DNA of 64,000 nt from Elainellaceae cyanobacterium (GCA_051117555.1 JBNPEG010000013.1:22454-86453); one strand, 5' to 3'; shown: positions 1 to 60,762, numbered from the stretch's first letter. Made by a program: numbers and translations. The notes: generated from the letters alone by a model not told the origin.

Positions 1-12
1 GATGGGAATAGG

Positions 13-50
13 GGTGGATGGGTGGATGGGTGGATGGGTGGATGGGTCGT
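13..50. repeat. Short tandem repeat, 8-nt unit GGTGGATG/GATGGGTG in about 4.5 copies, G-rich
   Basis: Read directly: ggggtggatgggtggatgggtggatgggtggatgggtcg. Resembles cyanobacterial short tandem repeats (STRR-like). Confidence 0.7.
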
Positions 51-240
51 TAAATCACAGAGTATACAATCAGAGAGCGTTTAGATTTTCGTGTAAGTGC
101 GACCGTCCTCGGTCGTATGTTCCTTACAAGGTGTTCCTTATGCGGTGTTCCTTAACGGTAGGGTCGCCGAGATGCTATGTTCCACATTGCCAGGGCAAAC
201 GCACTTAATTACACAAAATTCAGAACACACCCTCACTCCC

Positions 241-2055
241 TCACTTTCCCTCGTCTACTTTAATTTCTTCAATGTTCCATAAGCCCCAGCTAGGTAAGCC
301 AGAATATTTAAGTCCCTGGAGGCGATCGCGCGATGCCATCATGGCTAATCCATTTATTAGATGAATAACGGGTAACTGTTCTTGAACGATGCGCTGAAAA
401 TCAGCATAAATGATTTTCCGTTTGGCTTCATCGAGTTCACGCGCTCCTTGCTTAAAGAGTTGGTCGATGGCCTGTTCCCATTCACTGACAACCCATTCTG
501 TGACGGCGGGTTTACCCGGCTGCGGACCCAGATTAAACAGATGTGATCCTCCAGTGCTCATCCAAAGATTTGCGCCTTCGTGGGGTTCGACTCCGCCTGT
601 AAAGCCGATTAACAGGCTTTCCCATTCACGAGTGGTCAATACGTTAGCCACCAGCGTATTAAAGCTGATCGGGTTGAAGCTGACGCGAATTCCAATATCA
701 GCCAAGTTTGATTTAATTTGAGAGCCGACTCCTTCTCGCACCTCGTTTCCAGAATTGGTATTTAACACAAATTCAACCGGGTTATTATCTGCATCGAGCA
801 AACGACCCGTCAAATCATATTGAAACCCTGCTGATATCAGCAAGTCTTTTGCTTTGTCGATGCTGTAGTCATAGACTGGCAATCCCTCATCGGGAGATAG
901 GTAGTATGGACTTTGAACTGAAATCGGTGAATGTTGAAGGTCGCCAATGCCTCGGAAAATATTGTTAATCAGACGCGGGCGATCGATGGCATAGGCAACG
1001 GCTTGCCGAAATTCTAACGTGTTAAACCATCGAGACTTGACCGGATCAACGAGCGATCGCCCGTTTTCATTACTGCCTCGATTCAGGTTAAACGAAAGAA
1101 ACAGCGTACTTGAGCGAGGCCCTCCAATATGGATCGTAAAGTCACCGCGTTCTTCTTCTCGTTTTAACAACGAAAAGTCTTCAGGACGGAGAGCCCCTGC
1201 ATCTCCAAGGGCATCGAGTTCTCCAGATCGAAACCGCAGAAGCTGCGTGTCATCTGACTCTAAAAACTGCCAAATAATCCGATCGACGTAGGGAAACTGC
1301 TGCCCTTGAGGGTCTTGTTTCCAATAATATGGATTGCGGCGAAAGATGAGGCGCTGTGCTGGAACATAGCGTTCCATTTTATACGGTCCATTCACAATGA
1401 TTTGGTCTGGAGGGGTATCGGTCCCCCACGTGGAAATAAACGCCGGATTGCCATCCGCATCTAGCGTGTTGACTGCATCTTGAAGCACGTGCTGCGGAAG
1501 AATATTGACTCCATTGGGCCCGGCAACTGCTCTCAACAGCGGGGCAAACGGTTCTGGCAAGACAAATTCAATTTGGCGATCGCCCCGTTTGAGCACCTGC
1601 GGAAACAAGCGCTGTTCACCAATGCGAAAGGCATCTTTGGCATCCGTCGGAATCGCTTCATTAAAAACAACATCTTGATAGGTAAACACCACATCGTCTG
1701 CTGTGAGCGATTCCCCATCCGACCAGCGCAGCCCCTCCCGAAGCGTAAATATTACCCGTTGCTGATCGTCAGAAAATTCCCACGATTCGGCTAACGACGG
1801 CTCAATTGCTCCGGTCACGCCGTTTTCTTCAGTCAGCCCTCGGAAGCAAAATAGAAAAATATTCGGAAACTGCTGCCGCAATGCCGCATTGAACGTTTTC
1901 GGATCGCTGAGCGACGTTAGCACGAGTTGCGACCCATCAGCCACCGCTGTTGTTGGAGTCGAAAGGCGGCATCCTTCCAGCACGCCAGTTAACAGAATAG
2001 GAAGAATTAAGCCAATGAGCCAGCGTTGGACTAAGCGGATTCGGTAAAACGGCAT
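241..2055 (-). CDS. ABC transporter substrate-binding protein, family 5 (Opp/Dpp/Nik-type), lipoprotein; paralog 1 of 4
   Basis: 604 aa. N-terminal signal with lipobox (LTGVLEGC). Length and conserved blocks typical of SBP_bac_5 (RNPYYW, WGTDT, SPYYL motifs shared with paralogs 2-4). Confidence 0.85.
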   Translation of the reverse strand: MPFYRIRLVQRWLIGLILPILLTGVLEGCRLSTPTTAVADGSQLVLTSLSDPKTFNAALRQQFPNIFLFCFRGLTEENGVTGAIEPSLAESWEFSDDQQRVIFTLREGLRWSDGESLTADDVVFTYQDVVFNEAIPTDAKDAFRIGEQRLFPQVLKRGDRQIEFVLPEPFAPLLRAVAGPNGVNILPQHVLQDAVNTLDADGNPAFISTWGTDTPPDQIIVNGPYKMERYVPAQRLIFRRNPYYWKQDPQGQQFPYVDRIIWQFLESDDTQLLRFRSGELDALGDAGALRPEDFSLLKREEERGDFTIHIGGPRSSTLFLSFNLNRGSNENGRSLVDPVKSRWFNTLEFRQAVAYAIDRPRLINNIFRGIGDLQHSPISVQSPYYLSPDEGLPVYDYSIDKAKDLLISAGFQYDLTGRLLDADNNPVEFVLNTNSGNEVREGVGSQIKSNLADIGIRVSFNPISFNTLVANVLTTREWESLLIGFTGGVEPHEGANLWMSTGGSHLFNLGPQPGKPAVTEWVVSEWEQAIDQLFKQGARELDEAKRKIIYADFQRIVQEQLPVIHLINGLAMMASRDRLQGLKYSGLPSWGLWNIEEIKVDEGK

Positions 2056-2201
2056 TGTATCAAGACAGCATACAGACTATTCGACTAAAGCCCTACGGGC
2101 TCAGGTTTGTGTGGTGAACCCGCGCGGCGCGAGAGTTCACCACACGTTCAGCGTCCTAACGCGAGAGCGTAAGGCTATAAACAGTGGCTCTGTGTAGGAT
2201 T

Positions 2202-3983
2202 TTAATCAACCACTTTAATTTCATATACGTTCCACAATACGCTCTCTAGGTTGGTGTTGCCGAGTGACGAAAATTCTACCCCTTCAAGGCGATCGCGAAT
2301 CGCAGACATGGTTAATGGATTAATCAAATAAATACAAGGTAGATATTCTTGTGCCAATTGCTGGGATTGGGCATAAATCTCTTTCCGCTGCTCTTCGTCA
2401 AACTCTTGAGCCCCTTCGATGTAAAGCTGCCCGATCTTGGCTTCCCAATCGGCAACCACTCGCCCTTCAATGGGAGGCTGCCCCGGCTGGGACGCCAAAT
2501 TAAACATGTGTAAGCGACCGTCTGGAAGCCAGAAATTTGCGCCCCCGTGGGGCTCAACTCCGCCCGTAAAGGCGATCAAGACACATTCCCAATCTAGGGT
2601 GGTATCGAGCTTATCAATCAGAGTATTAAAGGCAATGGGCTGAAAATTGACCTGCATGCCAATTTCACCCAAGTCGCGCTTAATTTGTGCCCCGATCGCG
2701 CTGACTGTTTGCCCGCCCGCAGGTACGTTGAGAATGAATTCGACTAGGTTTCCTTCAGCGTCCAACAATTGTCCCTGAGGATTATATTGGAATCCAGCGC
2801 TTTGCAGGAGAGTTTTGGCGCGCTCAGGGTCATGGTCATAGGTCTGAAGCCCCTCTTCAGGAGACAGGTAATACGGGCTCTGAACTGAGATTGGAGAATG
2901 TTGGGGTTCACCAATACCGCGATAGAGATTGTTAATCATGGTTTGGCGATCGAGCCCATAGGCAACGGCTTGGCGAAATTCAACGGTGTTAAACCATCGG
3001 GACTTCACCGGATCGACCAATGGTTGACCGTTTCGACTGCCTTGATTGAGATTAAACGAGATAAACACGGTCCCCATGGCAGGTTCGCCAATCTCAATGT
3101 GAAAATTACTGCGGTCTTCTTCTCGCTTGAGCAAAGAAAAATTGGTGGGTGAAACGCCAATCGTGTCTAACCCTCCCGATCGAAACTGCATAATCGCCGT
3201 ATCGGATGACTCAACAATCTCCCAGATGAGCTGCTCTACATAGGGCAACGAATTGCCTTGAGCGTCTTTGCGCCAGTAGTAAGGATTGCGATCAAATACG
3301 ACGCGCTGATTGGGAGAATAGCTAGAGATGACATACGGACCGCTACACACGATTTGACGAGGGTCAGTATCGGTTCCCCAGGTGGTAAGAAAGCGAGGGT
3401 CGCCATCCGATCCGGTGTTGACGACCGACTCATAAAGCGCATGCTTAGGGATGATGGCAATGCCACCGCTAAATCGCAGCAAGGGGGCAAAGGGTTCTGG
3501 TGCGATGAACTGAACTCTGCGCTCGTCAACCTGACGCACTTCAGGCAACACGCCGCTCTCTCCGATTCGCAGAATGTCGCGGGTGCTCGTCGGGATGGCT
3601 TCATTGAAGATGACGTCGTTATATGTAAAGAGAATATCCTCCACGGTCAGAGGCTCTCCGTCTGACCACTTCAGTCCCTCACGCAGGGTATAGGTAATTC
3701 GCAGCCCGTCGTCGGAGATGTCCCATGATTCTGCCAGTTCAGGGACGAGCTCTCCGGTTATTCCATCTTGCTGGAGCAGAGCGTTATAGGTTAACCCAAA
3801 TACGTTGGGTGATTCTTCGCTGAGGATGTAGTTAAATGTTTTGGGGTCGGTGGTCACTGCAACCACAATCCGGCTAATTTCGGCTGCTTCAGTGCGATAC
3901 AACACAGACTCGCAGCCTCCAGTGGCGATCGCCATCAGCACTGCTAGCCCCACCAACAAAAGCCTGCGGAATCGTCTAACCAT
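2202..3983 (-). CDS. ABC transporter substrate-binding protein, family 5, lipoprotein; paralog 2
   Basis: 593 aa. Signal plus lipobox (ATGGC). Colinear similarity to neighbouring paralogs (DRNPYYW, TWGTDTDP, SPISVQSPYYLSP). Confidence 0.85.
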   Translation of the reverse strand: MVRRFRRLLLVGLAVLMAIATGGCESVLYRTEAAEISRIVVAVTTDPKTFNYILSEESPNVFGLTYNALLQQDGITGELVPELAESWDISDDGLRITYTLREGLKWSDGEPLTVEDILFTYNDVIFNEAIPTSTRDILRIGESGVLPEVRQVDERRVQFIAPEPFAPLLRFSGGIAIIPKHALYESVVNTGSDGDPRFLTTWGTDTDPRQIVCSGPYVISSYSPNQRVVFDRNPYYWRKDAQGNSLPYVEQLIWEIVESSDTAIMQFRSGGLDTIGVSPTNFSLLKREEDRSNFHIEIGEPAMGTVFISFNLNQGSRNGQPLVDPVKSRWFNTVEFRQAVAYGLDRQTMINNLYRGIGEPQHSPISVQSPYYLSPEEGLQTYDHDPERAKTLLQSAGFQYNPQGQLLDAEGNLVEFILNVPAGGQTVSAIGAQIKRDLGEIGMQVNFQPIAFNTLIDKLDTTLDWECVLIAFTGGVEPHGGANFWLPDGRLHMFNLASQPGQPPIEGRVVADWEAKIGQLYIEGAQEFDEEQRKEIYAQSQQLAQEYLPCIYLINPLTMSAIRDRLEGVEFSSLGNTNLESVLWNVYEIKVVD

Positions 3984-4084
3984 AGTGAATTAACCTAAAC
4001 GAGACGTATCTAAAATCATGACTCAGATTATCAACAGGGATTTCTGAGATCTTAAGTCAGATTTGAGAATTCCTGCGGAGAGGT

Positions 4085-5932
4085 TTACTCAAGGCGCAAC
4101 TCATACACATTCCAAAACAGCTTTCCTAACGCTGAATATTGAACGTCCTTGATTCGATTGCGAATCGCACCGAGCGCTAGCGGATTCACTAAATGAATGA
4201 ACGGCACATAATCCTGAATGAGCTGTTGCGCGTCTGCATAAATTTCTTTTCGTTTGTCTTCATCCAGTTCTTGAGACCCCGCAATATAGAGCCTACCGAT
4301 TTCAGCTTCCCAGTCCGTAACCTCTCGCCCCACCACCGAATCATCGTCGGATTTTAGATTGAAGTCATGAAATTGCCCGTCTGGAAGCCAGGTTGAAGCT
4401 CCACTATGGGGTTCGATGTCATCGGTGAAGCCAAGCACCTGAGCTTCCCAGTCCATCGTGGTCGTAATTTTGTCGACCAGCGTGTTAAACGTCATGGGTT
4501 GAAAATCAACCTGAATGCCGATGCGCGCCAAATCATATTTAATCTGGGAGCCTATGGATTCCCGGATTCGGTTGCCGGAGTTGGTTATTAGGGTAAATCT
4601 AACGCGATTCCCCTCGGCATCGAGTAATCGATTGTCGGCGTCATAGTAAAAGCCTGCTCCTCTCAGCAGGTCTTTGGATTTTTCGACGTTGTAGCGATAG
4701 ACCTTTAGGCCATCGTCCGGTGAAAGATAGTATGGGCTCTGAGAGGAAATGGGGGAATCTTGAAATTCTCCCAATCCTCGAAAAACGTTGTTAATCATTG
4801 TCTGGCGGTCGATTGAATGGGCGATCGCCTGTCTAAACGCCACGGTATTAAACCAGGCCGATTTGATTGGGTCAATCAGCGGCTCTCCGGTGTCTCGCCG
4901 CCGCCCCTTATTGAGGTTAAACGTGAGATAACTGGTGCTAATCGTCGGCCCTCCGTTATAAATCGTGAAGTCGCCTCGTCGTTCTTCTCGCTTCAGCAGA
5001 GAAAAATTTTCTGGACTGACTCCGACGACATCGAGCCCGCCCGATCGAAACTGCAACAGGGCATTGTCGGTTGATTCAACAATTTGTCGAATGATTCGCT
5101 CGACATAGGGCATGGCTTGATTTTGGTCGTCTGTTCGCCAATAGTAAGGATTGCGCCGAAAGATAACCCGCTGGCTCGGTTCGTACGTTTCGATCAGGTA
5201 GGGGCCATTGGTGACAATGTTGGCGGGGTTGGTGTCAGTGCCCCAGGTCGATAAAAACTCTGGGTTCCCTTCAGTATCTTGGGCCTCCACGTAGGGCTCA
5301 AGTGCGTGTTTCGGAACGATTGGCGTCTCTCCGGCTGCGCTAAGAAACGGGGCAAAGGGTTCAGGCACGGTAAATTCAACTTGGCGATCGCTCAGTTGTG
5401 TCACGGTTGGAAACGCTCTCGATTCTCCGATTCTCATCACATCGCGGAGCGTATTAGGAATGTTCTCGTTAAAGTAAACCGAGTTAAACGTAAACACGAC
5501 ATCCTCAACGGTGAGCGGCTCGCCATCTGACCAGCGCAACCCATCTCTGAGGGTAAAGACAATGCGGAGGCGATCGTCTGAAACCTCCCAAGATTCTGCT
5601 AATTCGGGTTCGAGTTCTCCGGTCATTCCATGTTGGCTCAGCATGCCGACATAGGTTAAATCGAAGACGTTTGGATATTCCTCATTGAGAACGACATTAA
5701 ACGTCTTTGGGTCGCTCAAAAAACTATCGACAATACGCGGCACTTGGGCCGCTTCGGTGCTAAACCAGCTTGGGCTACAGCTTCCGAGGGCGATCGCCAA
5801 TCCAGCCGCCACCATAAAACCAGCCAGCCGAACTGCTCGAAGCGAGCGAATCAACCCATTGACCCGACGTAGTGAAGGCAGCCTTGATTGACGAAACTTA
5901 GTCGACTTCAGCAATTTCCAACTCATAAACAT
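4085..5932 (-). CDS. ABC transporter substrate-binding protein, family 5, lipoprotein; paralog 3. True start probably internal near 5815-5833.
   Basis: 615-aa ORF with lipobox (ALGSC). The long N-terminal extension overlaps the 3' end of paralog 4 by 35 nt, so a later Met/Val start is likely. Confidence 0.8.
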   Translation of the reverse strand: MFMSWKLLKSTKFRQSRLPSLRRVNGLIRSLRAVRLAGFMVAAGLAIALGSCSPSWFSTEAAQVPRIVDSFLSDPKTFNVVLNEEYPNVFDLTYVGMLSQHGMTGELEPELAESWEVSDDRLRIVFTLRDGLRWSDGEPLTVEDVVFTFNSVYFNENIPNTLRDVMRIGESRAFPTVTQLSDRQVEFTVPEPFAPFLSAAGETPIVPKHALEPYVEAQDTEGNPEFLSTWGTDTNPANIVTNGPYLIETYEPSQRVIFRRNPYYWRTDDQNQAMPYVERIIRQIVESTDNALLQFRSGGLDVVGVSPENFSLLKREERRGDFTIYNGGPTISTSYLTFNLNKGRRRDTGEPLIDPIKSAWFNTVAFRQAIAHSIDRQTMINNVFRGLGEFQDSPISSQSPYYLSPDDGLKVYRYNVEKSKDLLRGAGFYYDADNRLLDAEGNRVRFTLITNSGNRIRESIGSQIKYDLARIGIQVDFQPMTFNTLVDKITTTMDWEAQVLGFTDDIEPHSGASTWLPDGQFHDFNLKSDDDSVVGREVTDWEAEIGRLYIAGSQELDEDKRKEIYADAQQLIQDYVPFIHLVNPLALGAIRNRIKDVQYSALGKLFWNVYELRLE

Positions 5933-7688
5933 TCCAAAGCGAACCGCCTAGCGCTGAGTATTTGACATTTTGAATGCGATCGCGCACTGCTGACAACGAG
6001 AGGGGGTTAACCAGATAAATAAACGGCAAATAGTCTTGAGTGATGATCTGGCTTTGGGCGTAGATCTCAGATCGCTCCTCTTCATCGAGAGTGCGCGCTG
6101 CATCCACATAAAGCTGGCCAATTTTCTCTTCCCAATCTGAAACTACTCGCCCTTCAATGGGCGGTTCTCCCGCTTGAGCAGGCTGATTAAATCGGTGCGA
6201 TCGCCCATTGGGTTGCCAAACATTTGCGCCATCATTGGGTTCAACTCCCCCTGTAAAACCCAGCAAATAGCATTCCCAATCAATCGTATTCGCAAGCTTA
6301 TCGATCAGCGTGCCAAACGCAATCGGATTAAAATCAACCTGAATACCGATTTTGCTCAAATCTTGCTTAATCTGCGCCCCCATCGACTCCCGAATCTTGT
6401 TCCCCGAATTTGTGATCAGCGTAAATCGCACGCGATTGCCATCGGCATCTAGTAATTGACCGTTTGGATCATACTGGAATCCGGCATCAAGTAAGAGTGT
6501 TCTAGCTATCTCTGGGTCGTAATCATAAACGGGTAAGCCCTCGGCGGGAGGCAGATAGTAGGGGCTTTGTACAGAAATTGGCGAATTTTGTAGCTCGGCT
6601 AGCCCTTGAAACGTGTTGTTAATCATGCGCTGGCGATCGATCGCATAGGCAACTGCCTGCCGAAAATTCACCGTGTTAAACCAGCGAGATTTAATAGGGT
6701 CAACCAGGGGTACGCCATTTCGTCTGCCCTGGTTGAGATTAAAAGCAATAAAACTCGTAGACGGAACAGGACCTCCCTCATAAATAGTGAAATCCCCTCT
6801 GCTTTCTTCACGCTTAAGCAGCGCAAAGTAGTCAGGAGAGATGCCTAATACATCAAGTCCGCCTGAGCGAAATTGAATCACTGATGCATCAGACGATTCA
6901 ACAATTTGCCAAATCAGTCGTTCGACATAGGGCATCGGGTTTCCCTGCTCATCGCGTCGCCAGTAGTGCAGATTTCGTTCAAATACTACACGCTGACTCG
7001 GCACATAACTCGCTAAACGATAAGGACCATTCGCAATAATGTCTGCCGGATCGGTGTCTGTCCCCCAGGCAGATACAAAGCGGGGGGTGCCGTCTGCGTC
7101 GAGTTCATCTACGGATCGCTGGAGCGCATGTTTGGGCAATATCTTAATCAAACCCACTGTTCGCAGAAAGGGTGCAAATGGCTCCGGCACCGTAAATTCT
7201 ACTCTCCGATCATCGAGGCTGCGAACCTTGGGGAGTTCTTGAGATTCTCCGATTCTCAACACATCCCGTGCACTCGATGGAATGGCTTCATTAAAAAGCA
7301 GATCGTTGTAAGTAAACTCAACATCTGCGGCAGTGAGTGGCTCTCCATCCGACCATTTCAATCCGTCTCGCAGGGTAAACGTAATCCGGAGATCGTCATC
7401 CGAAATCTCCCAGCTTTCTGCGAGGGCGGGTTCAATATCAGCCGTTAGCCCATTCTCCTCGACAAGCCCGTCATAGATGAGGCTAAACACGTTCGGCGCT
7501 GTGGTGTTGAGAACGTAATTAAATGTTTCAGGATCGCTGAGCGTACTGGTCACAATTTGAGGAGGCTGCGCCGCTCGTCCTGTAAATTGAGCTGTGTTGC
7601 ATGCCCCAATGGCGATCGCCGCTATAGGAACCAGCATCCAATACAGCCATCGCTGCCGCAATCCACGAATGATAGTCAGCTTAAACAC
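5898..7688 (-). CDS. ABC transporter substrate-binding protein, family 5, lipoprotein; paralog 4. GTG start overlaps queF stop.
   Basis: 596 aa with lipobox (AIGAC). Start codon reads GTG at 7686-7688, overlapping the TAG stop of queF (7688-7690) by 1 nt. Confidence 0.8.
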   Translation of the reverse strand: MFKLTIIRGLRQRWLYWMLVPIAAIAIGACNTAQFTGRAAQPPQIVTSTLSDPETFNYVLNTTAPNVFSLIYDGLVEENGLTADIEPALAESWEISDDDLRITFTLRDGLKWSDGEPLTAADVEFTYNDLLFNEAIPSSARDVLRIGESQELPKVRSLDDRRVEFTVPEPFAPFLRTVGLIKILPKHALQRSVDELDADGTPRFVSAWGTDTDPADIIANGPYRLASYVPSQRVVFERNLHYWRRDEQGNPMPYVERLIWQIVESSDASVIQFRSGGLDVLGISPDYFALLKREESRGDFTIYEGGPVPSTSFIAFNLNQGRRNGVPLVDPIKSRWFNTVNFRQAVAYAIDRQRMINNTFQGLAELQNSPISVQSPYYLPPAEGLPVYDYDPEIARTLLLDAGFQYDPNGQLLDADGNRVRFTLITNSGNKIRESMGAQIKQDLSKIGIQVDFNPIAFGTLIDKLANTIDWECYLLGFTGGVEPNDGANVWQPNGRSHRFNQPAQAGEPPIEGRVVSDWEEKIGQLYVDAARTLDEEERSEIYAQSQIITQDYLPFIYLVNPLSLSAVRDRIQNVKYSALGGSLWNVYELEIAEVD

Positions 7689-8119
7689 TAGGCTCCTTTT
7701 TGATGCTTAACCTCAATGACCGTATGAACATTCCCACGAGGCGCAAAATCCCCTTTTACCGTCACTTCAAGCGGATCACACGCAGCTACAAAATCATCCA
7801 GAATTTGATTAACGGATTCTTCATGAGAAATGTAGCGATCGCGATAGCTGTTGATATAGAGCTTGAGTGCTTTAAGTTCGACGACGTGATTGTCAGGAAT
7901 ATAGCTCAGATGAATCGTTGCAAAATCTGGATAGCCTGAAAATGGGCACTTACACGTAAATTCGGGCAACTCAATTTGAATGGTATATCGTCGCCCCATT
8001 CGAGGATTGGGAAACGTCGTTAGCGTACCTTCTGCGATCTGGCGTTCGCCGTATTTCGTTGGTGTCGGTAAATTGTCTCGCTCCGAAGAGATGTTTGACT
8101 GGGTAAATGATTGATTCAT
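7688..8119 (-). CDS. queF: NADPH-dependent 7-cyano-7-deazaguanine (preQ0) reductase QueF, type I
   Basis: 143 aa. Motif EFTCKCPFSGYPDFATIHLSYIPD and ELKALKLY match the unimodular QueF (YkvM) family closely. Confidence 0.9.
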   Translation of the reverse strand: MNQSFTQSNISSERDNLPTPTKYGERQIAEGTLTTFPNPRMGRRYTIQIELPEFTCKCPFSGYPDFATIHLSYIPDNHVVELKALKLYINSYRDRYISHEESVNQILDDFVAACDPLEVTVKGDFAPRGNVHTVIEVKHQKGA

Positions 8120-15314: not shown

Positions 15315-17411
15315 ATGCCCAAACAAATTATTATCGCCGAGCAGCATCGCATCGCCGCTGTCTTTTCGGAAGACCAGATCCAAGAACTGATTGTTGCGAC
15401 AGGCAGTCATCAGGTCGGTGACATTTATTTAGGAATTGTTGAAAACGTCTTACCCGGTATTGACGCCGCATTTGTCAATATCGGCGACACCGAGCGCAAT
15501 GGATTTATCCATGTTTCTGACCTGGGCCCATTGCGACTCAAGCGTTCAGCAGGTTCAATCACTGAGTTGCTAGCACCTCAACAGAAAGTGCTGGTGCAAA
15601 TCATGAAGGAACCCACTGGCAATAAGGGGCCTCGATTGACCGGCAATATAACGCTACCAGGGCGGTATTTGGTGCTGATGCCCTTCGGTCGGGGGGTCAA
15701 TCTTTCGAGGCGAATTCGCAATGAGAATGAGCGAAACCGTTTGCGGGCTTTAGCAATTCTCGTCAAGCCTGCTGGGATGGGGCTGCTTGTCCGTACTGAA
15801 GCAGAAGGAATAGCGGAAGAAGCCATCATCGAGGATTTAGAAGCTCTCCAGCGACAGTGGGAAAATATTCAACAGGAAGCCGTTACATCCCGTCCTCCCA
15901 AGTTGCTTAATCGGGATGATGACTTTATCCAGCGCGTTCTCCGTGACGTATACAGTGCGGATGTAAACCGAATCGTTGTTGACTCGCACACGGGCCTAAA
16001 ACGAGTCAAGCAGCATTTAATGTCTTGGAGTGGTGGAAAATCTCCTCAGGGAGTTCTCATTGACCACCATCGCGATCGCATCTCTATTTTGGAATACTTC
16101 CGGGTCAATGCAGCAATTCGAGAAGCACTTAAGCCCAGAGTTGATTTGCCGTCAGGGGGCTATATCATCATTGAAACGACCGAAGCCCTGACCGTCATCG
16201 ATGTCAACTCCGGATCATTTACCCGATCGAATACGTCTCGCGAAACCGTTCTGTGGACGAACTGTGAAGCGGCATCAGAAATTGCCCGACAACTGCGCCT
16301 CCGCAACGTAGCAGGTGTTATCGTTGTTGACTTCATCGATATGGACTCTCGGCGTGACCAGCTCCAAGTTCTTGAGCAGTTTACCCGAGAACTCAAAGCA
16401 GACAAAGCCCGCCCTCAAGTCGCTCAGCTATCTGAGCTAGGGTTAGTTGAGTTAACCCGTAAGCGTCAAGGACAAAATATTTACGAGTTGTTTGGACGAC
16501 CCTGTGCAACATGTGGCGGTTTGGGTCATCTAGTCCACTTGCCTGGTGATACCGAAACCGTGGTTCATGAGATTGTTGAACCACCGCGCACATACCCTGT
16601 TGTCGAATCTCGTAATCCGCAGCTTCGAGAGGTGCCTGATGCACAGGGAGAAGATTTTGAGCTAGAAACGTCGTCTGATTTGCAAGAGCTGGATTTGGTT
16701 AATCATCCGAGCTATCAAGAGCGGGGAGGCAATAATCGACGACGGCGGCGGCGGCGAGGAGATTTGCCCTCTCCACGATCTGGAAATGCTCGAGTTGCCG
16801 TTAATCTCGACGCAGACGAATCACCCGATGGATCAGACGATCGAACACCTGCACCACCGACGATAAAAGAGGGTCGCCCTGACCGCAGTGAACGGGGAGA
16901 CCGCGGCGATCGCCCTGACCGCAGTGAACGAGGCGACCGCAGCGATCGCAGTAAGTCGTCAAGTCGACGAGACAAAACTCCTGAGCCGCCTGAAGTGATT
17001 GCTATTGAGATGACCCAACAAGAGCAAGATGTTTATGCATTGATGGGTATTTCGCCTCTCGTTTTAGCAACCGAACCTGTGAAAGATTCAAAAAGCGTCA
17101 TTGTGAATGTGGTTTTGCCAGGACAGGTCAGTCGGTCTAATGGCAGCGGTGAATCAGATGAGCAACCATCCTTTGTCTTTGACCAGTCCGATTCCGCTGC
17201 GTCCTCTGAGTCAGATCAGTCCCCTCCGTCCTCAGAGTCTCAAACGAGCTTGACAGACGAATCAAATTCAGATCAGGACGAGGAGACATTTGATCAAACC
17301 GACCTGATTGGCGCTGAGTCTGTCAATGGTAATGGTGAGAGTGGAGCATCGGAGAATGGCACATCCACTCGCCGTCGCCGTCGCCGTCGTTCCTCAGCGG
17401 CTGATGCTTGA
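15315..17411 (+). CDS. rne: Ribonuclease E (cyanobacterial type) with Arg-rich C-terminal tail
   Basis: 698 aa. S1 and catalytic-domain N-terminus (GDIYLGIVENVLPGIDAAFVNIG). Zn-link CATCGG motif. Internal RRRRRRRG, a repeated RPDRSERGDR unit, and C-terminal RRRRRRRSS nonapeptide. Confidence 0.9.
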   Translation: MPKQIIIAEQHRIAAVFSEDQIQELIVATGSHQVGDIYLGIVENVLPGIDAAFVNIGDTERNGFIHVSDLGPLRLKRSAGSITELLAPQQKVLVQIMKEPTGNKGPRLTGNITLPGRYLVLMPFGRGVNLSRRIRNENERNRLRALAILVKPAGMGLLVRTEAEGIAEEAIIEDLEALQRQWENIQQEAVTSRPPKLLNRDDDFIQRVLRDVYSADVNRIVVDSHTGLKRVKQHLMSWSGGKSPQGVLIDHHRDRISILEYFRVNAAIREALKPRVDLPSGGYIIIETTEALTVIDVNSGSFTRSNTSRETVLWTNCEAASEIARQLRLRNVAGVIVVDFIDMDSRRDQLQVLEQFTRELKADKARPQVAQLSELGLVELTRKRQGQNIYELFGRPCATCGGLGHLVHLPGDTETVVHEIVEPPRTYPVVESRNPQLREVPDAQGEDFELETSSDLQELDLVNHPSYQERGGNNRRRRRRRGDLPSPRSGNARVAVNLDADESPDGSDDRTPAPPTIKEGRPDRSERGDRGDRPDRSERGDRSDRSKSSSRRDKTPEPPEVIAIEMTQQEQDVYALMGISPLVLATEPVKDSKSVIVNVVLPGQVSRSNGSGESDEQPSFVFDQSDSAASSESDQSPPSSESQTSLTDESNSDQDEETFDQTDLIGAESVNGNGESGASENGTSTRRRRRRRSSAADA

Positions 17412-17501
17412 TGGAGCTAAGAGGCCAATAGCTGGTAGCCAAATAGCTGATATCTAATAATTGATGGTTTGCTTGTATTGAGCGCCGATCGCTAAGCAAT
17501 C

Positions 17502-18191
17502 ATGTTTTTTGACTCTAGCCAATCCTTGTTACTCGATCAACTCAGTTTCTTAGACCAACTCAGCTTGCCCGACTCGTCTGACTTCATCGCGGGTGTTGAC
17601 GAGGTTGGTCGGGGGGCACTGTTTGGACCTGTGGTAGCAGCGGCTGTGATCTTGCCTTCGTCAGCTTTTAAGTCTCTTTCAGAGTTGGGAGTAACCGATA
17701 GCAAAAAGCTAACCCATGCTACACGTGAACAATTGACTATCTCGATTCAAGATATTGCAACTGACTGCAAAATTGGGATAGCATCTGTGCGCGAAATTGA
17801 TCGGCTCAATATTTTGTATGCATCCTTGTTAGCAATGAAACGGGCGATCCGACGGTTAAATCCACAGCCACAGGTATGCTTGATTGATGGAAATCAACGA
17901 ATCCCAGATCTATTAATTCATCAGCATACGTTAGTTAAAGGAGATGAGCACTCCATCGCGATCGCAGCTGCTAGTATCATTGCTAAAGTATGGCGCGATC
18001 GCCTCATCATCCGCATGGCGACTAAATACCCTCAATATGACTTAGCCGCTAATAAGGGATATGGAACCCCTAAACACCGTCTCGCCTTAGATGCATTTGG
18101 ACCTTGTCCTTACCACCGACGTTCATTTAAGCCCTGTCAAATTTTGCCGTCTTCACTGTCTGATGGCATCAGCCTGAGCCATCCGATTTAG
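17502..18191 (+). CDS. rnhB: Ribonuclease HII
   Basis: GVDEVGRGALFGPVVAAAVIL and DSKKL motifs. Conserved rne-rnhB adjacency. Confidence 0.9.
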   Translation: MFFDSSQSLLLDQLSFLDQLSLPDSSDFIAGVDEVGRGALFGPVVAAAVILPSSAFKSLSELGVTDSKKLTHATREQLTISIQDIATDCKIGIASVREIDRLNILYASLLAMKRAIRRLNPQPQVCLIDGNQRIPDLLIHQHTLVKGDEHSIAIAAASIIAKVWRDRLIIRMATKYPQYDLAANKGYGTPKHRLALDAFGPCPYHRRSFKPCQILPSSLSDGISLSHPI

Positions 18192-18222
18192 CGGTTAATC
18201 AGAGCTCTAGCCCGCAGGAACC

Positions 18223-18816
18223 TTAGGCTGTCGGGCTGTCTCTCAGGAGTGATGAAGATTCATTTGTAGAATCGCTATCTGCTTCTCCTTGAGCCATTGC
18301 CCATTTTCGATAATCAGACAGTAATTGATGCATTAATCGCTGTTTAATGCTCGTCAAGACACTTCTTAATAAACCATTTCCCGTTGCCTCTAAGAGTGGT
18401 TTCGGCGTGAGTCGAAGCGGTGGCGGTAACTCAACTTGCACAGACAAATCTGCTTGCCCGACCAAATAGGTTTCCCCATCTACGACCCGGGGAGAGAGCT
18501 CTCCAACTAAATCGAGATTAAAGCGCTGGTCAACGTAATCAATCCCTCGAATTTTACAACCCACTGATTCCAGGTGAACCGTGCCATCGGAATCAACCCA
18601 CAACCTCATATCTACGGTGGGCTGAATGCTAAACATCATAAAATTCCTAGAGCGCATCTTGAGGCGAAATACTTCTGCGCTAAGCCGTTCTGTTCGACTT
18701 GGATCAACTAAGGCCCCAATCAATCGATGAGGTTGACGCAAATAGTGTTGAATGGGAACAGGTTGTTCATGAACAGCAATCTTGACAGTTTGGGTAGAAG
18801 CGAATTGAACGGGCAT
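18223..18816 (-). CDS. Conserved hypothetical protein, probably DUF1997 family
   Basis: 197 aa. Assigned from memory of the family only. Acidic C-terminus. Confidence 0.45.
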   Translation of the reverse strand: MPVQFASTQTVKIAVHEQPVPIQHYLRQPHRLIGALVDPSRTERLSAEVFRLKMRSRNFMMFSIQPTVDMRLWVDSDGTVHLESVGCKIRGIDYVDQRFNLDLVGELSPRVVDGETYLVGQADLSVQVELPPPLRLTPKPLLEATGNGLLRSVLTSIKQRLMHQLLSDYRKWAMAQGEADSDSTNESSSLLRDSPTA

Positions 18817-19173
18817 TGAATTACTTACTCAGTGAAATGGCTGCCTCGGCATGAATTACCTTAACTAAATTTTACAATTTTTCCGAGGAATACCCTTGAT
18901 TCTACCGAGAATAGAGGCGCAAATACTCTCGGAAACGGGTATTAATTCATAAATATTGCGGTTTTGTAACTATTAGTGAAAAGCGTCTCATCGTTTTGAT
19001 TTGCTTGAGCCAATCCAGATCATTTGTAAAGTTAATCTTGGGTGGAATTTATCCGAGAGATGCGTATAGCAATATGCGCTTAAGTTGAGCACGGTGATGT
19101 GCCCCCCCGCTGCTGTATTTGACACAATTAGCGACTTGTTACAAATAAACTAATTCTAATCCGTGTAGACTAT

Positions 19174-20046
19174 ATGCCCATTTCTATTGCCTATCTAGGA
19201 CCGGCTGGAACCTACGCAGAGGCGGCTGCGCTAGCCTGTGCAGCATGGTTGACTCAAACTCAGGGAGAAGCTCCGCTGCTTATTCCTTATCCGAGTATCT
19301 TCCAAACTCTTCAGGCGACTGCGTCTCATCAGACTCAGTTGACAGTCGTTCCGGTCGAAAATTCTATCGAGGGAAGTGTCTCAATAACGCTAGACACTCT
19401 TTGGCAACTCGATATCCTCCGAATTCAGCAGGCTATCGTGCTTCCCATCTCTCACGCTTTATTGTCCCATGCTCCTTCAATTGAAGCGATTCAGTCAGTG
19501 CATTCTCATCCTCAAGCTCTTGCTCAATGTCAAGGATGGTTAGAAAAGCATCTGCCCACTGTGAAACTTATCCCGACAAGCTCTACTACTGAAGCATTAC
19601 AACATCTTGATCAAAACATGAGCGCCGGTGCGATCGCCTCTAAACGAGCTGCGCACCTCTATTGTCTGCCAATCTTAGCGCATCCGATCAATGATCACCC
19701 TGACAATTGCACTCGATTCTGGGTTATGGGACTGCAAAATTCCGAAACCGGAAATCATAGTTCGTTGGCGTTCAGTCTTCCTCAGAACGTGCCCGGATCT
19801 CTAGTCAAACTTCTACAGATCTTCGCAGATCGGAATATTAATCTCAGCCGAATTGAATCAAGACCAACCAAGCGATCGCTCGGAGAGTACCTTTTCTTTA
19901 TCGATGTAGAAGCCAGCCTAACCAGTGACGCTGTTCAGTCAGCCCTTCACGAACTTAGAGCACAAACTGAGACGCTTAAAATATTTGGAACCTACGACAT
20001 CATGGAAGCTCAGCCACCTTCCCAGATGATTGATCAATCAAACTAA
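19174..20046 (+). CDS. pheA: Prephenate dehydratase with C-terminal ACT domain
   Basis: 290 aa. IAYLGPAGTYAEAAA N-terminus. TRF(W/L)V and ESRP motifs of PDT. Confidence 0.85.
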   Translation: MPISIAYLGPAGTYAEAAALACAAWLTQTQGEAPLLIPYPSIFQTLQATASHQTQLTVVPVENSIEGSVSITLDTLWQLDILRIQQAIVLPISHALLSHAPSIEAIQSVHSHPQALAQCQGWLEKHLPTVKLIPTSSTTEALQHLDQNMSAGAIASKRAAHLYCLPILAHPINDHPDNCTRFWVMGLQNSETGNHSSLAFSLPQNVPGSLVKLLQIFADRNINLSRIESRPTKRSLGEYLFFIDVEASLTSDAVQSALHELRAQTETLKIFGTYDIMEAQPPSQMIDQSN

Positions 20047-37369: not shown

Positions 37370-38764
37370 ATGACCGAACCTTATCATCAAACTACAGCTT
37401 TGCTTTGGCGGCTTTTCCCCGGGAGCCGAAAGCGATCAGAATACCACCATCTATCATCTGATAGAGAGTTTACGGTGGGACGCGACCCTCGATGTGATGT
37501 AACCTTCGATTACTTGATTCATAGCGAGGTGTCTCGTCAACACCTAAAAATTTGCTCCTTGCCCAACGCTTTCGGACTGTGGCAAGTTTGTGATCTCAAC
37601 AGTTCAAATGGCACGTATGTTAATGGCGAGCGCGTGCGTGATTGCCGTATTTTGAATCACGGCGATATTATTTCACTCGGTCGTCGAGGTCCTCAATTTA
37701 TCTTTGAATTGCAGTTTTATCAACCGTTTCAGCAAGACCCTTCCCATTTTCTTGACTCTCCTGAACTGACCACAAAAGCATCGACAAGCCGTGCTATCTC
37801 TCGATCTGGATCACGTCCATCTAATCCGTTTAACGCGACTGACCCCGCAACTCTAACTCAGCTCTTCCCTATCATTTCTACAGGGCGCGAGCTGGCGCAA
37901 AAAGCTCACTTGATACCGGTCATCATTACCATTTCGTTTGTTGTTCTGATGTTTGCCGCTGTGGGTCAGACAGAATGGTTTAACTTTTTGTTAGCAGCCT
38001 ACATATCAGGGGCTGCTTATTATTTTGTGTATCGTCTTTGCGATAAGCGAAAGCCATGGTGGCTCATTGTCGCGTCAGCAACGATAACCGCGCTTTTATT
38101 GGTCAGCCCACTTCTTCAAGGATTTTTGTGGTTTTTTCGAGGAGTATTACCTGGGCAACCTCAAAGCGATTCAACCTCAGTTAATCTCATCAGCTTAGTG
38201 TTCCAAATGTTCATTGGAGCTGGGCTGATGGAAGAACTCATTAAGGCAATTCCGGTGCTCTTGGCCTATGTGATTGGGATGACTGTAAAGTCAACTCATC
38301 GTCAAGAGCAAATTGGGATTCGTGAACCTTTAGACGGTATTTTGCTAGGTACAGCCTCGGCAATCGGTTTTACACTAGTCGAGACGTTGGGTCAATACAT
38401 TCCTGCTATGGTCAACAGTGTCGCAGCGGGAGGGGAGACAGGAGATCTGATGGGACTACAACTTCTGATTCCTCGCATTCTTGGCTCAGTCTCAGGGCAC
38501 ATGGCATATAGCGGGTACTTCGGTTATTTCATTGGGCTGAGCGCATTTAAACCCCGCCAACGATGGAAAATTTTAGGCATTGGCTATTTAAGCTCATCGG
38601 TCTTGCATGCCCTCTGGAATGTGATGGGGTTCATTAACCCCATCGTTTTAGCTTTAGTAGGCGTGCTTTCATATGCATTTTTAGGCGCAGCCATTCTTAA
38701 AGCTAGAACGTTTTCTTTACATGAGTCGCAGCAAGGGGATAGTCACTCTACACACATGCCTTAA
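37370..38764 (+). CDS. FHA-domain protein fused to PrsW-family membrane protease domain
   Basis: N-terminal FHA (FTVGRDPRCDVTF...SRQH...NGTYVNGERV). C-terminal 6-8 TM with PrsW-like EELIKAIPV...HALWN blocks. Confidence 0.7.
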   Translation: MTEPYHQTTALLWRLFPGSRKRSEYHHLSSDREFTVGRDPRCDVTFDYLIHSEVSRQHLKICSLPNAFGLWQVCDLNSSNGTYVNGERVRDCRILNHGDIISLGRRGPQFIFELQFYQPFQQDPSHFLDSPELTTKASTSRAISRSGSRPSNPFNATDPATLTQLFPIISTGRELAQKAHLIPVIITISFVVLMFAAVGQTEWFNFLLAAYISGAAYYFVYRLCDKRKPWWLIVASATITALLLVSPLLQGFLWFFRGVLPGQPQSDSTSVNLISLVFQMFIGAGLMEELIKAIPVLLAYVIGMTVKSTHRQEQIGIREPLDGILLGTASAIGFTLVETLGQYIPAMVNSVAAGGETGDLMGLQLLIPRILGSVSGHMAYSGYFGYFIGLSAFKPRQRWKILGIGYLSSSVLHALWNVMGFINPIVLALVGVLSYAFLGAAILKARTFSLHESQQGDSHSTHMP

Positions 38765-38846
38765 CAAGAAAAACGGGATTTAGAGAAAAATGAAATTTAG
38801 AAACATCCCTACTGACCCGCGCAATCACAGCATTAGCGATCGCCAC

Positions 38847-39500
38847 TTACTGCTCTGATGAATTTCTAGCCGGAAGTTGGGCAATGGCATATCGAGCGAT
38901 CGCCAAACTGAGTCGAGCCTGCTCTACACCCGACAAGTCAGTCCAGGCGGCATAGCGGACCGATCGAAGCGCAGCTTCGAGTTGATCTGTGTTCGAGCCT
39001 CTCATTGAGAACGCCAAGGGACGTGCTAAAACCTGCAAATCATCATCCCCCCAATTGGGCAATAGATCATTGACACACCGAACAAGCTGTTCTGCTAAGG
39101 ACAAATTTGCTGTCAATACGCGCTGAGCCTGCTCAGCAATGCTGAGCAAAACCGGTTGAGGGACTCGAGTCCCGAAGCGGGATACTAGCTCGGTGTGAAG
39201 TTCTTGAACTTGCTCAGGCGAGGATGCTGTGTCCCAGATTTGGTCTAATTGAGCGAAAAAGCGTTGACTCCGACTTGCGATGTCCTCTGTTGGCCAATCC
39301 GAAGCAACAGACTGCTCTAATTCTTCGAAATACGCATCTGCTTCTACTTGGCTTGGTTCCCACGGATAGGAAGAATCAACATTAAAGATAAGCTTCACGA
39401 GTTCTAGCTCTGCTTCTGCTTGAAATCGAGAAATCGGGGTGTTTGAGGAATCGCTGTTCATCGGGCTGCTCCTAAAATATGCATCAACCAAACCTGACAT
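38847..39500 (-). CDS. Hypothetical acidic protein, last gene of the CHAT/PP2C cluster
   Basis: 217 aa. No recognisable domain. Lies 61 nt downstream of the CHAT-FHA gene, co-oriented. Confidence 0.5.
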   Translation of the reverse strand: MSGLVDAYFRSSPMNSDSSNTPISRFQAEAELELVKLIFNVDSSYPWEPSQVEADAYFEELEQSVASDWPTEDIASRSQRFFAQLDQIWDTASSPEQVQELHTELVSRFGTRVPQPVLLSIAEQAQRVLTANLSLAEQLVRCVNDLLPNWGDDDLQVLARPLAFSMRGSNTDQLEAALRSVRYAAWTDLSGVEQARLSLAIARYAIAQLPARNSSEQ

Positions 39501-39561
39501 CAGTAGCTACACCATCGCATTAAAGCGTTCCGTAACTCATACGTAATTTACGAAAATTGTT

Positions 39562-41232: not shown

Positions 41233-41336
41233 GTATGTACAACGTAAACCTCATGAATTCGCGTATTTACTTAAAAGTCTATCGGGTCTGATAGCAGAGG
41301 TGAAAGTTAAAAGAGTACCAAAATCATGGATCGATG

Positions 41337-58045: not shown

Positions 58046-58993
58046 CTATATTTCAGCAGGAAATCCGGCAATTTCAGTGACCGTATAAAGCGGGCGAGCT
58101 TTCACTTCTTCATAGATACGCCCGATATATTCGCCTAAAATGCCGATACAAATGAGCTGGACTGCCCCAAAAAAGAGAATTGCCATGATGATTGTGGCAT
58201 AGCCCGTCAATGGCGAGTTGGGTTGAAGAAAGCGCCAATAGACAACTAGCACCATCATCAAGAGAGCAACGGCTGCTGAAAATAAGCCGATATACGTTGC
58301 AATGCGCAGCGGAATTTTTGAAAAGGAAACCAAGCTATCGATCGCCAGCGCAAGGGATTTGCCAAACGTATATTTAACGGGTCCGGCGTATCGAGGCGAA
58401 CGATTATAGCGCACGGCTGTTTGTCGAAAGCCAATCCAGGCGCGTAATCCTCGAATATATCGATTGCGTTCAGGCATCGCGTTTAGTGCATCCACGACCC
58501 GCCGATCCATGAGACAAAAATCTCCGGTGTCCGTAGGAATGTCTACATCAGCGAGTCGCTGGAGGAGGCGATAAAACAAATGAGCGGTGAGACGTTTGAA
58601 CCAATTCTCCCGCTGCCGAGTAGTCCGCTGAGCATACACAACCTGATATCCGTTTTGCCACTGATGCAGCATATCTGGAATTAGCTCTGGAGGATCTTGC
58701 AAGTCGGCATCTAGAACGACCACAATCTGACCCCGTGCAAAATTAAGTCCAGCCGTGACAGCCGTTTGATGACCGAAGTTGCGGGCAAAATTGAGATAGC
58801 AAACCCTGGAATCGTGGTGTCTCAATTCTCGAATAATGAGCAAGGAGCGATCGCCACTGCCGTCGTTAACGAAGATAAATTCAGCGATTCCCTCTAATCG
58901 ATTGATGACATCGCAAAGCCGTCGATAGAGTTCGTGCAATGAGTCTTCTTCGTTATAGACCGGGATCACGAGAGAATAGCTCACCTCACTCAT
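58046..58993 (-). CDS. GT2-family polyprenyl-phosphate glycosyltransferase (DPM1/ArnC-like)
   Basis: [10 protein letters not shown]...VNDGSGD. DAD motif. C-terminal TM helices. Confidence 0.8.
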
Positions 58994-60762
58994 GGATGGG
59001 GCCCCGCGACATTGTGCCAGCGGGTCAGTAAGGGAGCTGCATTCAGCAATGTTTGAGTATACGGGTGTTGAGGATTCGAGAAAATTTCATCGGTAGTTCC
59101 GTATTCAACAATTTGACCCGCTTGCATCACTGCAATGCGATCGCAAAAGTATCGGGCAACCCAAAGATCGTGGGTGATAAACAAATAGGTCAGGTCGAAC
59201 TCTTGCTTTAGCTCTAGCATGAGTTCTAACACTTGACTCTGAATGCTGGCATCGAGCATGCTCACGGGTTCATCGCAGATAAGCAATTTAGGTCGAGTGA
59301 TGAGCGCCCGGGCGATCGCCACTCGCTGCTGCTGCCCGCCGGAAAGCTCATTTGGATAGCGATGATAAAACTCATCCGGTGGCGTCAACCCAACTCGCTC
59401 TAGCATGGCGTTCACGTGGGCAGCGATGTTGTCTCCGTGTGCCAACTGATGAATCAGCAATGGACTGGCAATGCCTTGTCCCACAGTCATGAGTGGATTT
59501 AAGCAGGCATGGGGATCTTGAAAAATCATCTGCATCTGCCGACGCTGTCGCCGCATTTCATCTGGCGATAACGCTGTTAGGTCTTGTTGGAGAAACTCGA
59601 CGGTGCCTGATGTGGGGTGTACGAGCCGCAAAATTGTCCGCGATAATGTGCTTTTCCCACAGCCCGACTCACCCACCAAGCCCAAAATCTCACCCGGAAA
59701 AATATCAAGGCTGACATCATCGACGGCTTTAATTGTGCGATCGCTCGTCTGTGAAAAGAGCCGAGCGATAAAATTTTGCTCTAAGGTGTAATGCTGCTTG
59801 AGATGGCGAATGCTCAGAAGCGGTGGAGAAGACGATGAAATGGATGAATTAGCTGAGCGAATTTGAGGTGACGATGGGGCGATCGCTCCATCACGCGCTC
59901 TGCTGCCTTCTCTGCCCTCGCTGCCGCTTTCTCCGCGTTGGAGGTGTAGTGCGGCGGATAACAGCGATTGGGTATAGGAATGTTGGGGGTTGGTGAGGAC
60001 AGACTCGACCGTTCCAGTTTCAACGATCTTACCGTCATACATGACAGCAATGCGATCGCAATATTCGCCGACGAGCGTCAAATCATGGGAGATTAACATC
60101 AACGCCATCTGACGCTCCCGGCAGAGGCGGGTCAGTTCCTTTAAAATCTGTGCCGAAACCGTGACATCTAAGCTAGTCGTGGGCTCGTCTGCAACAATCA
60201 ACTTTGGATTTAGAAGTAACGCTAGGGCGATCGCCACGCGCTGCCGCATCCCTCCGCTAAACTCGTGAGGATATTGTCCCCACCGACTTGCCGGAATATT
60301 CACAGCATCTAAAATCTCAATGCCACGCTGCCTGGCATCTTGGCGAGAAAGGTGAGGGTCATGAGCGAGCAGAGTCTCAATGCAGTGGTTGCCAATGGTC
60401 ATCAGCGGGTCGAGGCGCGTCATTGGGTCTTGAAAAATAAGGGCGATCGCTTCTCCGCGAAATGTGCGGAGCGCATCAGCCGATAGATCAAAAACCGATT
60501 GCCCCTTAAATAAAACCGTTCCCTCAATGTGAGTGGATGACGGCAATAGTCGCATCGCAGCGCGTCCGAGCGTGGATTTTCCGCAGCCTGATTCTCCAAC
60601 TAATCCAAGCCTTTCTCCAGGCATCAGAGTTAGCGAGACATCATCGACTGCCCAAGTCTGAGGTGACGCAGCGACTGACTGCTTAGCAGATGACAGATTT
60701 TGAGGACTCGTTTGCGGATAAGCGACCCGAACGTGTTCGATGCAAAAGAGAGCATTGCTCAT
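58990..60762 (-). CDS. ABC transporter ATP-binding protein with two fused ATPase domains (Dpp/Opp D+F type)
   Basis: 590 aa. Two Walker A (GESGCGKST x2). Two LSGG signatures. Opp/Dpp C-terminal oligopeptide-ABC extension. 4-nt overlap with the GT2 gene. Confidence 0.85.

Follow-up and report, generated by a model that had tools for sequence, protein, structure and literature searches.

How do four large substrate-binding proteins (SBPs), encoded side by side with no permease or ATPase gene next to them, serve a cell? The question is raised by a stretch of 64,000 nt from a filamentous Elainellaceae cyanobacterium (GCA_051117555.1, JBNPEG010000013.1:22454-86453), hereafter called the window. 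Its left 8.1 kb consists of five co-oriented minus-strand open reading frames (ORFs), queF and then four paralogous family-5 SBP genes named SBP4, SBP3, SBP2 and SBP1 (Table 1). Window coordinates are positions in the 64-kb stretch, and the left flank of the array is visible for 240 nt only. Our analyses favour, with a probability of roughly 0.6, the view that the four SBPs are alternative receptors of a single Dpp/Opp-type importer whose other parts are encoded in trans. The absence of adjacent partners, which the initial annotation had pointed out, turned out to be the rule for this family.

The description of the array as four co-oriented family-5 lipoproteins of about 600 residues, arranged head to tail, was borne out. 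All four proteins match PF00496 (SBP_bac_5) with scores of 245-281 bits against a cut-off of 32.4 (E values of 1e-72 to 1e-83). A lipobox Cys closes the hydrophobic N-terminal segment in each of them, and in the family alignment this Cys is present at the aligned column in 94 of the 98 members. The strict lipobox pattern is found in 80 of the 98, and most of the remaining members carry an L-N-[AGS]-C variant. SBP1 has an atypical L-E-G-C lipobox with Glu at position -2, the motif being L-G-G-C in its ortholog at L087, the corresponding locus of a second Elainellaceae metagenome-assembled genome (MAG).

We modelled SBP4 with AlphaFold2, obtaining a predicted local distance difference test (pLDDT) score of 84.8 and a predicted template-modelling (pTM) score of 0.79. 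Foldseek comparisons of this model with solved cluster-C SBPs returned E values of 1e-35 to 1e-41 and TM scores, normalised to target length, of 0.7-0.89, with values of 0.8-0.89 for AppA, CtaP, NikZ, NikA and DppA. As modelled, SBP4 has the large bilobed cluster-C fold. The ratios of nonsynonymous to synonymous substitution rates (dN/dS) relative to the L087 orthologs were 0.070 for SBP4, 0.081 for SBP3, 0.044 for SBP2 and 0.105 for SBP1, and by this estimate all four genes are under strong purifying selection.

The paralogs had been described as diverged rather than recently copied, which our comparisons confirm. Pairwise identities among the four range from 53 to 61% at the protein level and from 58 to 63% at the DNA level, and therefore the array is neither an assembly artefact nor the product of a recent amplification; the low dN/dS values likewise rule these out. 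We built a neighbour-joining tree from 98 family members with Chloroflexota relatives as the root. In it, SBP1 belongs to an old, widely distributed clade of its own that also holds L084_14242, L031_11894, L052, L057 and L059; the members of this clade include the third SBP of Oscillatoria sp. FACHB-1407, a second SBP from a Hormoscilla genome and genes that other MAGs contribute singly. SBP2, SBP3 and SBP4 are each paired with their positional counterpart in the L082 array, the ortholog of SBP2 being L082_13941. Two- and three-copy arrays are also found in Nostocales, where they are built from different clades. The separate clades, the one-to-one orthologs in L082 and the Nostocales arrays thus indicate that tandem expansion in this slot occurred repeatedly and long ago. 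Copy number varies among close relatives as well: counting the window, the loci carry 4, 4, 3, 3 and 1 SBP genes.

We then looked for the transporter partners. No window ORF of at least 150 aa contains a BPD_transp_1 permease domain in a domain scan, and tblastn searches of the 64 kb for a DppB-type permease gave no match with either of two probes, an E. coli DppB sequence and one cyanobacterial permease. The E. coli probe detected permeases in two other loci, which were then confirmed as BPD_transp_1. Because only 240 nt are visible to the left of the array, this flank was checked by proxy in L087, a 93%-identical relative, in which the 10 kb downstream of the array contain no permease and no ATPase gene, larB and a protein kinase gene being found there instead. 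The array thus lacks both kinds of partner in its vicinity, as initially annotated, and the possibility that permease genes lie immediately left of the window finds no support in this close relative.

The wider family shows the same arrangement. We inspected 72 loci from cyanobacterial genomes, with flanks of at most 10 kb, and found a permease near a family SBP in two of them, L038 and L065. In both, it is a single divergent DppB-like gene followed by a pentapeptide-repeat gene, with no second permease and no ATPase, and no other link between the family and a permease was seen. In these two loci (L038 6609-9738, L065 463-3346), the gene before the SBP gene encodes an L-asparaginase II (PF06089). 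Metagenome relatives of this permease (65-83% identity) are likewise solitary, and a more distant permease group has a different SBP directly upstream. A classical SBP-permease operon in distant relatives was also considered and ruled out at loci of 38-39% identical Chloroflexota proteins, which have unrelated neighbours and no transporter genes beside them.

The ATPase of compatible type that had been reported some 51 kb away, also without a permease, was located as a fused DppD/DppF-type double ATPase. A GT2 glycosyltransferase gene and a TPR protein gene flank it. Between cyanobacterial orders it retains about 70% identity, and in FACHB-1407, too, it is encoded on its own. In the window, the ATPase gene overlaps the downstream family-2 glycosyltransferase gene by 4 nt (58046-60762), which suggests co-translation with a functionally unrelated gene. 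Missing partners are unremarkable because nearly all loci of the family are without them, because the ATPase and the DppB-like permease are solitary too, and because there is an experimentally established precedent in Anabaena, whose N-I transporter has its genes spread over several loci and whose BgtA ATPase is shared by two systems (PMC4500139).

What the SBPs bind was addressed by comparison with characterised proteins. None of the four reaches an NCBIfam equivalog cut-off: the best match is Opp4A (140-166 bits, cut-off 650), followed by nickel_nikA (TIGR02294; 88-115 bits, cut-off 393), and DppA and OppA score 67-93 and 50-61 bits against cut-offs of 1005 and 947, respectively. By sequence, the solved structures that come closest are a putative OppA (5ipw), Bacillus subtilis AppA and CcNikZ-II; by fold they are AppA, CtaP, NikZ, MelB, SPH1118 and DppA, each with an identity of about 20%. 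A family signature, EP[NH]xGAN[VL]W-x2-[ED]-G-x2-H-x-F-N, is conserved, and a looser W-x6-H is also present in the Chloroflexota relatives. Asp408 of DppA and Asp419 of OppA, three residues past a conserved Trp, anchor the alpha-amino group of the peptide. At this Trp+3 position, as placed by a weak local alignment to GbpA/DppA (E 0.006), SBP2 and SBP3 have Asp, SBP4 has Asn and SBP1 has Thr, with Glu or Asp in most of the family. This pattern is consistent with peptide-type binding and with diversification of the paralogs without being proof of either. The four SBPs should not be collapsed into one function in annotation.

Nickel sites were examined in the same way. The nickel-site residues of NikA are His416 and Arg137. 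An equivalent of His416 was sought over NikA residues 397-422 and was not retained, as the HMMER alignments do not cover the C-terminal lobe reliably. The W-x6-H-x-F spacing that the family has in common with NikA involves His405, which is not a nickel ligand, and nothing was drawn from it. A site of the NikZ type, whose signature is a GHHG double-histidine prong near the C-terminus (bioRxiv 10.1101/2022.10.03.510666), was rejected: the segments aligned to this motif in CcNikZ-II (8efz) read ALGGS, ALGKL, LGNTN and LPSWG, with no His in any of the four paralogs.

To characterize the surroundings of the family, we clustered every ORF located up to 5 kb from an SBP gene in the cyanobacterial loci. 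The commonest neighbour, present in 41 loci, is a protein of about 260 aa that we identified as LarB, which catalyses the first step in making the nickel-pincer nucleotide cofactor (NF033503, 297 bits in L001 and 291 bits in L084, the FACHB-1407 locus, with a cut-off of 175; the L087 neighbour carries the AIRC domain). In about 40 of the 64 cyanobacterial loci with room for it, larB lies directly downstream of the last SBP gene on the same strand, with gaps of 11-200 nt, and these loci span Nostocales, Gloeocapsopsis, Coleofasciculus, Dactylococcopsis, Elainellaceae, Leptolyngbyaceae and FACHB-1407. In L026, L028 and L033, the two genes are 11-13 nt apart, which is too close for separate transcription signals. 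Positions 1-240 of the window align with the spacer between SBP1 and larB in L087, up to a repeat tract located about 55 nt before the larB start codon. Judging from this alignment, the window almost certainly stops just short of larB, whose start would lie about 55 nt past its left edge. As far as the searchable literature shows, the conserved SBP-larB pair has not been described.

The linkage is not universal, as larB is non-adjacent in L082, L085 and many other loci. The three-SBP array of L082 is followed, in place of larB, by GATase_4, DinB_2+FGE-sulfatase and Methyltransf_33 genes resembling an egtC/egtB/egtD ergothioneine set (16065-19694). Recurrent upstream neighbours are ispF, trmD, cphB (cyanophycinase) and cphA (cyanophycin synthetase), mostly in Nostocales, and argH also recurs. 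All of these, argH included, were taken as inherited synteny and not as a functional link, and this accounts for part of the neighbour pattern. The SBP-larB pair persists where this upstream block has been replaced, as in the lineage of the window.

Several side observations concern the same surroundings. The block cphA, cphB, trmD, ispF, SBP, larB is found in L001 (3668-9073) and in about 25-35 other loci, mostly of Nostocales, and is often followed by genes for a NUDIX hydrolase and an alpha/beta-hydrolase and by argH. The proximity of a dipeptide-type SBP to cyanophycin genes invites the idea that beta-Asp-Arg might be a candidate ligand. The alpha/beta-hydrolase neighbour 'cluster' rests on about 30% identity within a very large superfamily. 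Cyanobacteria synthesise the nickel-pincer cofactor although most are without LarA, and the protein that uses the cofactor is unknown (PMC11796402).

At the other end of the array lies queF, which encodes a unimodular type II QueF whose score passes the TIGR03139 equivalog cut-off of 86.9. The queF stop and the GTG start of SBP4 have one base in common (TAGTG), and a Shine-Dalgarno-like AAAGGAG lies five bases upstream of this junction. The NCBI entry for the identical SBP4 protein (P0001, 579 aa) begins at M18, 17 residues later; we preferred the GTG start because the M18 start would remove the positively charged n-region of the signal peptide. The intergenic distances are -35 nt for SBP4/SBP3, 101 nt for SBP3/SBP2 and 146 nt for SBP2/SBP1, in agreement with the -35, ~100 and ~147 nt given at first. 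A second ATG of SBP3 at 5926 would reduce the SBP4/SBP3 overlap to 29 nt; the same start is called in L087, in which the overlap is kept at -29 nt.

The initial annotation also placed queF and the SBP genes in what is probably one operon. Co-transcription with queF is plausible from the gene arrangement: queF overlaps the first SBP gene by 1 nt here and by 4 nt in FACHB-1407 and is separated from it by 8 nt in L087, and the SBP4/SBP3 overlap is conserved. In the wider family, queF was found within 10 kb of an SBP gene in none of 80 genome loci. It lies immediately upstream of the first SBP gene in L081, L087, L082 and L084 and one gene away in L085, and the linkage is thus tight but restricted to Elainellaceae/Oculatellaceae-like relatives. 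An Rfam search (E <= 1) found neither a preQ1 nor any other riboswitch upstream of queF. Promoter and terminator scans gave hits no more frequent than in shuffled sequence and are therefore uninformative on the limits of the operon.

In the mechanism that we favour, each SBP would be exported, acylated on its conserved Cys and thereby anchored to the plasma membrane on its outer side. Each would capture its own variant of a related class of ligands, most likely short peptides or peptide-like compounds, and would dock onto a single translocator of the Dpp/Opp type whose permeases and fused double ATPase are encoded elsewhere. The double ATPase of the window would be the obvious candidate to energise transport in trans. 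The array probably expanded in place, through tandem duplications at one fixed chromosomal position before larB, with queF placed ahead of it in this lineage. Because the overlaps are conserved, we propose that at least queF, SBP4 and SBP3 form one transcript. This reading is supported by the conservation of a solitary fused ATPase bearing oligo_HPY and by the DppB-type permease found near a family member in L038 and L065. In Synechocystis, Sll1699 and Slr1740, annotated as oligopeptide-binding family-5 SBPs, occur in plasma-membrane proteomes (PMC7880944).

Several points weigh against a shared peptide importer. The four proteins are only about 20% identical to every solved SBP, and those bind ligands as different as peptides, Ni-His, sugars, pectin, sialic acid or opines; nor do the equivalog models assign them a function. 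The Trp+3 Asp equivalence comes from a weak local alignment. The ATPase is a candidate partner by its type, and the search of the 64-kb window revealed no permease. Even the Chloroflexota relatives are orphans, which leaves room for a role other than transport, and the conserved proximity of larB would point to nickel as the ligand more than to peptides.

This last point leads to the view that the SBPs are NikA-like receptors for nickel or nickel chelates, tied to synthesis of the nickel-pincer cofactor, with paralogs for different chelators and larB co-transcribed downstream. LarB is indeed the most frequent neighbour, co-directional in several orders and in L087, with very short gaps in some loci; nickel_nikA is the second-best NCBIfam match, NikZ and CcNikZ-II are among the top fold matches, CcNikZ-II giving the highest target-normalised TM score (0.89), and cyanobacteria make the cofactor. 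The lar locus of Lactobacillus plantarum includes a nickel transporter. However, all four paralogs are devoid of the double-histidine prong, their TIGR02294 scores are far under the cut-off, and three to four paralogs are more typical of peptide or oligosaccharide receptors. The conservation of the unrelated ispF, trmD and cphBA genes in the same block means that the adjacency of larB may itself be inherited synteny, and many loci, L082 and L085 included, do not have it. We regard nickel receptors as unlikely, although they are the main rival to the reading that we favour. The proposition that this cyanobacteria-wide SBP clade is functionally coupled to the nickel-pincer pathway, as a periplasmic receptor importing nickel or a nickel chelate for the LarB/LarE/LarC cofactor, with tandem paralogs for different nickel complexes, we likewise consider unlikely.

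It might also be that the SBPs do not take part in transport but act as periplasmic sensors or chaperone-like binders that signal to membrane kinases or chemoreceptors. That the family is orphan in nearly all loci, Chloroflexota included, would fit such a role, as would the Ser/Thr kinase genes that follow the locus in L087 and L038; SBPs feeding signalling proteins are documented (PMC8050422), and the fold neighbour SPH1118 is a chemotaxis-linked pectin binder. Kinase adjacency was not recurrent in the neighbour clustering, however, an ATPase of matching Dpp type and a DppB-like permease, both again encoded on their own, are retained in the same taxa, and scattered ABC transporter parts are known in cyanobacteria (PMC4500139), all of which makes this explanation improbable. 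The queF gene that abuts or overlaps the first SBP gene in five related genomes suggests yet another function, the uptake of preQ0, preQ1 or queuine from the environment for salvage, in which QueF would act on the imported preQ0, and new families of transporters for queuosine precursors are expected (PMC11130926). The absence of queF from the loci of the wider family and of a riboswitch upstream of it argues against this, no family-5 SBP figures among the known or candidate transporters in the same publication (PMC11130926), and neither the large cavities of cluster-C proteins nor the presence of several paralogs points to a ligand as small as a nucleobase, leaving salvage highly improbable. 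E. coli cells that lose queuosine express nikABCDE less and are more resistant to nickel (PMC9508795). In the present locus queF, SBPs of the Nik/Opp family and a nickel-cofactor gene are neighbours, a parallel that is probably coincidence.

Table 1. Features of the window and of related loci. Coordinates refer to the window unless a locus is named.
Feature	Coordinates	Strand	Evidence or content
queF, unimodular NADPH-dependent preQ0 reductase, 143 aa	7688..8119	-	TIGR03139 143.8 bits and PF14489; leads the co-oriented run
SBP4, family-5 substrate-binding lipoprotein, 596 aa	5898..7688	-	PF00496 E 2.7e-83; lipobox AIGAC
SBP3, paralog, 615 aa	4085..5932	-	PF00496 E 1.1e-78; lipobox ALGSC
SBP2, paralog, 593 aa	2202..3983	-	PF00496 E 7.1e-79; lipobox ATGGC
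SBP1, paralog, 604 aa, final SBP ahead of larB	241..2055	-	PF00496 E 1.8e-72; atypical lipobox L-E-G-C
Fused DppD/DppF-type double ATPase	58990..60762	-	2x PF00005 ABC_tran and 2x PF08352 oligo_HPY
Palindrome with 18-bp arms, SBP2-SBP1 spacer	2109..2145	.	Repeat search; strong RNA stem-loop without U-tail
SBP1-downstream spacer with short tandem repeats	1..240	-	Tandem Repeats Finder (TRF); alignment to the L087 SBP1-larB spacer
Divergent ORF, 223 aa	8403..9074	+	Homologs beside SBP in L003, L026, L082, L084 and L085
larB in L001	14593-15369
larB in L084	16100-16894
larB in L087	12220-13005
Locus L087, second Elainellaceae MAG; SBP orthologs 91-96% identical			alpha/beta-hydrolase, 222-aa ORF, queF, four SBPs, AIRC-domain gene (LarB type), protein kinase
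Locus L082, Joint Genome Institute (JGI) contig; orthologs ~78-80% identical			queF and three SBPs
Locus L084, Oscillatoria sp. FACHB-1407			queF overlapping the first of three SBPs by 4 nt, then larB
Locus L085, Oculatella sp. FACHB-28			queF, inserted 287-aa ORF, one SBP

The spacers of the array have features of their own. The SBP2-SBP1 spacer (2056-2201) folds at -54.9 kcal/mol (z = -4.2). The palindrome that it contains looks perfect, occurs once in the window and is absent from the 54-nt spacer of L087. The short-read Logan contig L081 (8.7 kb) ends between SBP2 and SBP1, near this palindrome, which could be an inserted palindromic element or a signal for RNA processing or stability. Tandem repeats at 1-47, 118-154 and 226-245 consist of an 8-nt unit, GGGTGGAT, in 4.5 copies, a 14-nt unit in 2.6 copies and an 8-nt unit, CACTCCCT, in 2.5 copies; the SBP1-larB spacer of L087 has the same kind of repeat tract with another copy number. 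The 223-aa ORF transcribed divergently from queF gave no Pfam or NCBIfam match. It is kept beside the SBP gene in Leptolyngbya-like relatives, including genomes that do not have queF there. Farther along the window (37370-43892), a signalling gene cluster encodes FHA + PrsW-protease and CHAT + FHA proteins and a large PP2C phosphatase.

The arrangement that we propose resembles known systems. The OppA1-5 proteins of Borrelia burgdorferi are likewise several diverged family-5 lipoprotein receptors, some of them encoded in tandem, and are thought to serve one OppBCDF translocator and to broaden its substrates (PMC5736914); AmiA/AliA/AliB of the pneumococcus are an arrangement of the same type. 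Borrelia differs in that three of its oppA genes adjoin permease and ATPase genes and that peptide binding has been demonstrated, whereas here there is no permease nearby and the fused ATPase is 51 kb away. Separate loci and shared parts are also found in Anabaena PCC 7120, with the N-I transporter (natA/B/C/D/E) and with BgtA shared by N-II and Bgt (PMC4500139), although these are experimentally proven amino-acid transporters with SBPs of other families and a single binding protein each. DppABCDF and NikABCDE of E. coli and NikZ of Campylobacter have the same Pfam family and cluster-C fold, and the fused ATPase has the oligo_HPY C-terminal region typical of Dpp/Opp/Nik. In contrast to these systems, the SBPs of the window are only about 20% identical to their counterparts, reach no equivalog cut-off, do not have the NikZ HH-prong and are not part of a transporter operon. 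Synechocystis Sll1699 and Slr1740, cyanobacterial family-5 SBPs of uncharacterised function from plasma-membrane proteomes (PMC7880944, PMC5053081), can be likened to them by family only.

Tandem orphan SBP paralogs that share a distant translocator are a familiar pattern, and the array is ordinary for cyanobacteria. For annotation, the value of this case is that 'no partner nearby' is not to be read as 'no transporter'. The position of an SBP gene immediately upstream of larB across many cyanobacterial orders may matter more than the array itself. If the coupling to nickel were true, the SBP-larB pair would be a genetic handle on the unknown user of the cofactor in cyanobacteria. A conserved and probably co-transcribed periplasmic partner of larB offers a cheap experimental entry point to the question of the nickel-pincer cofactor.

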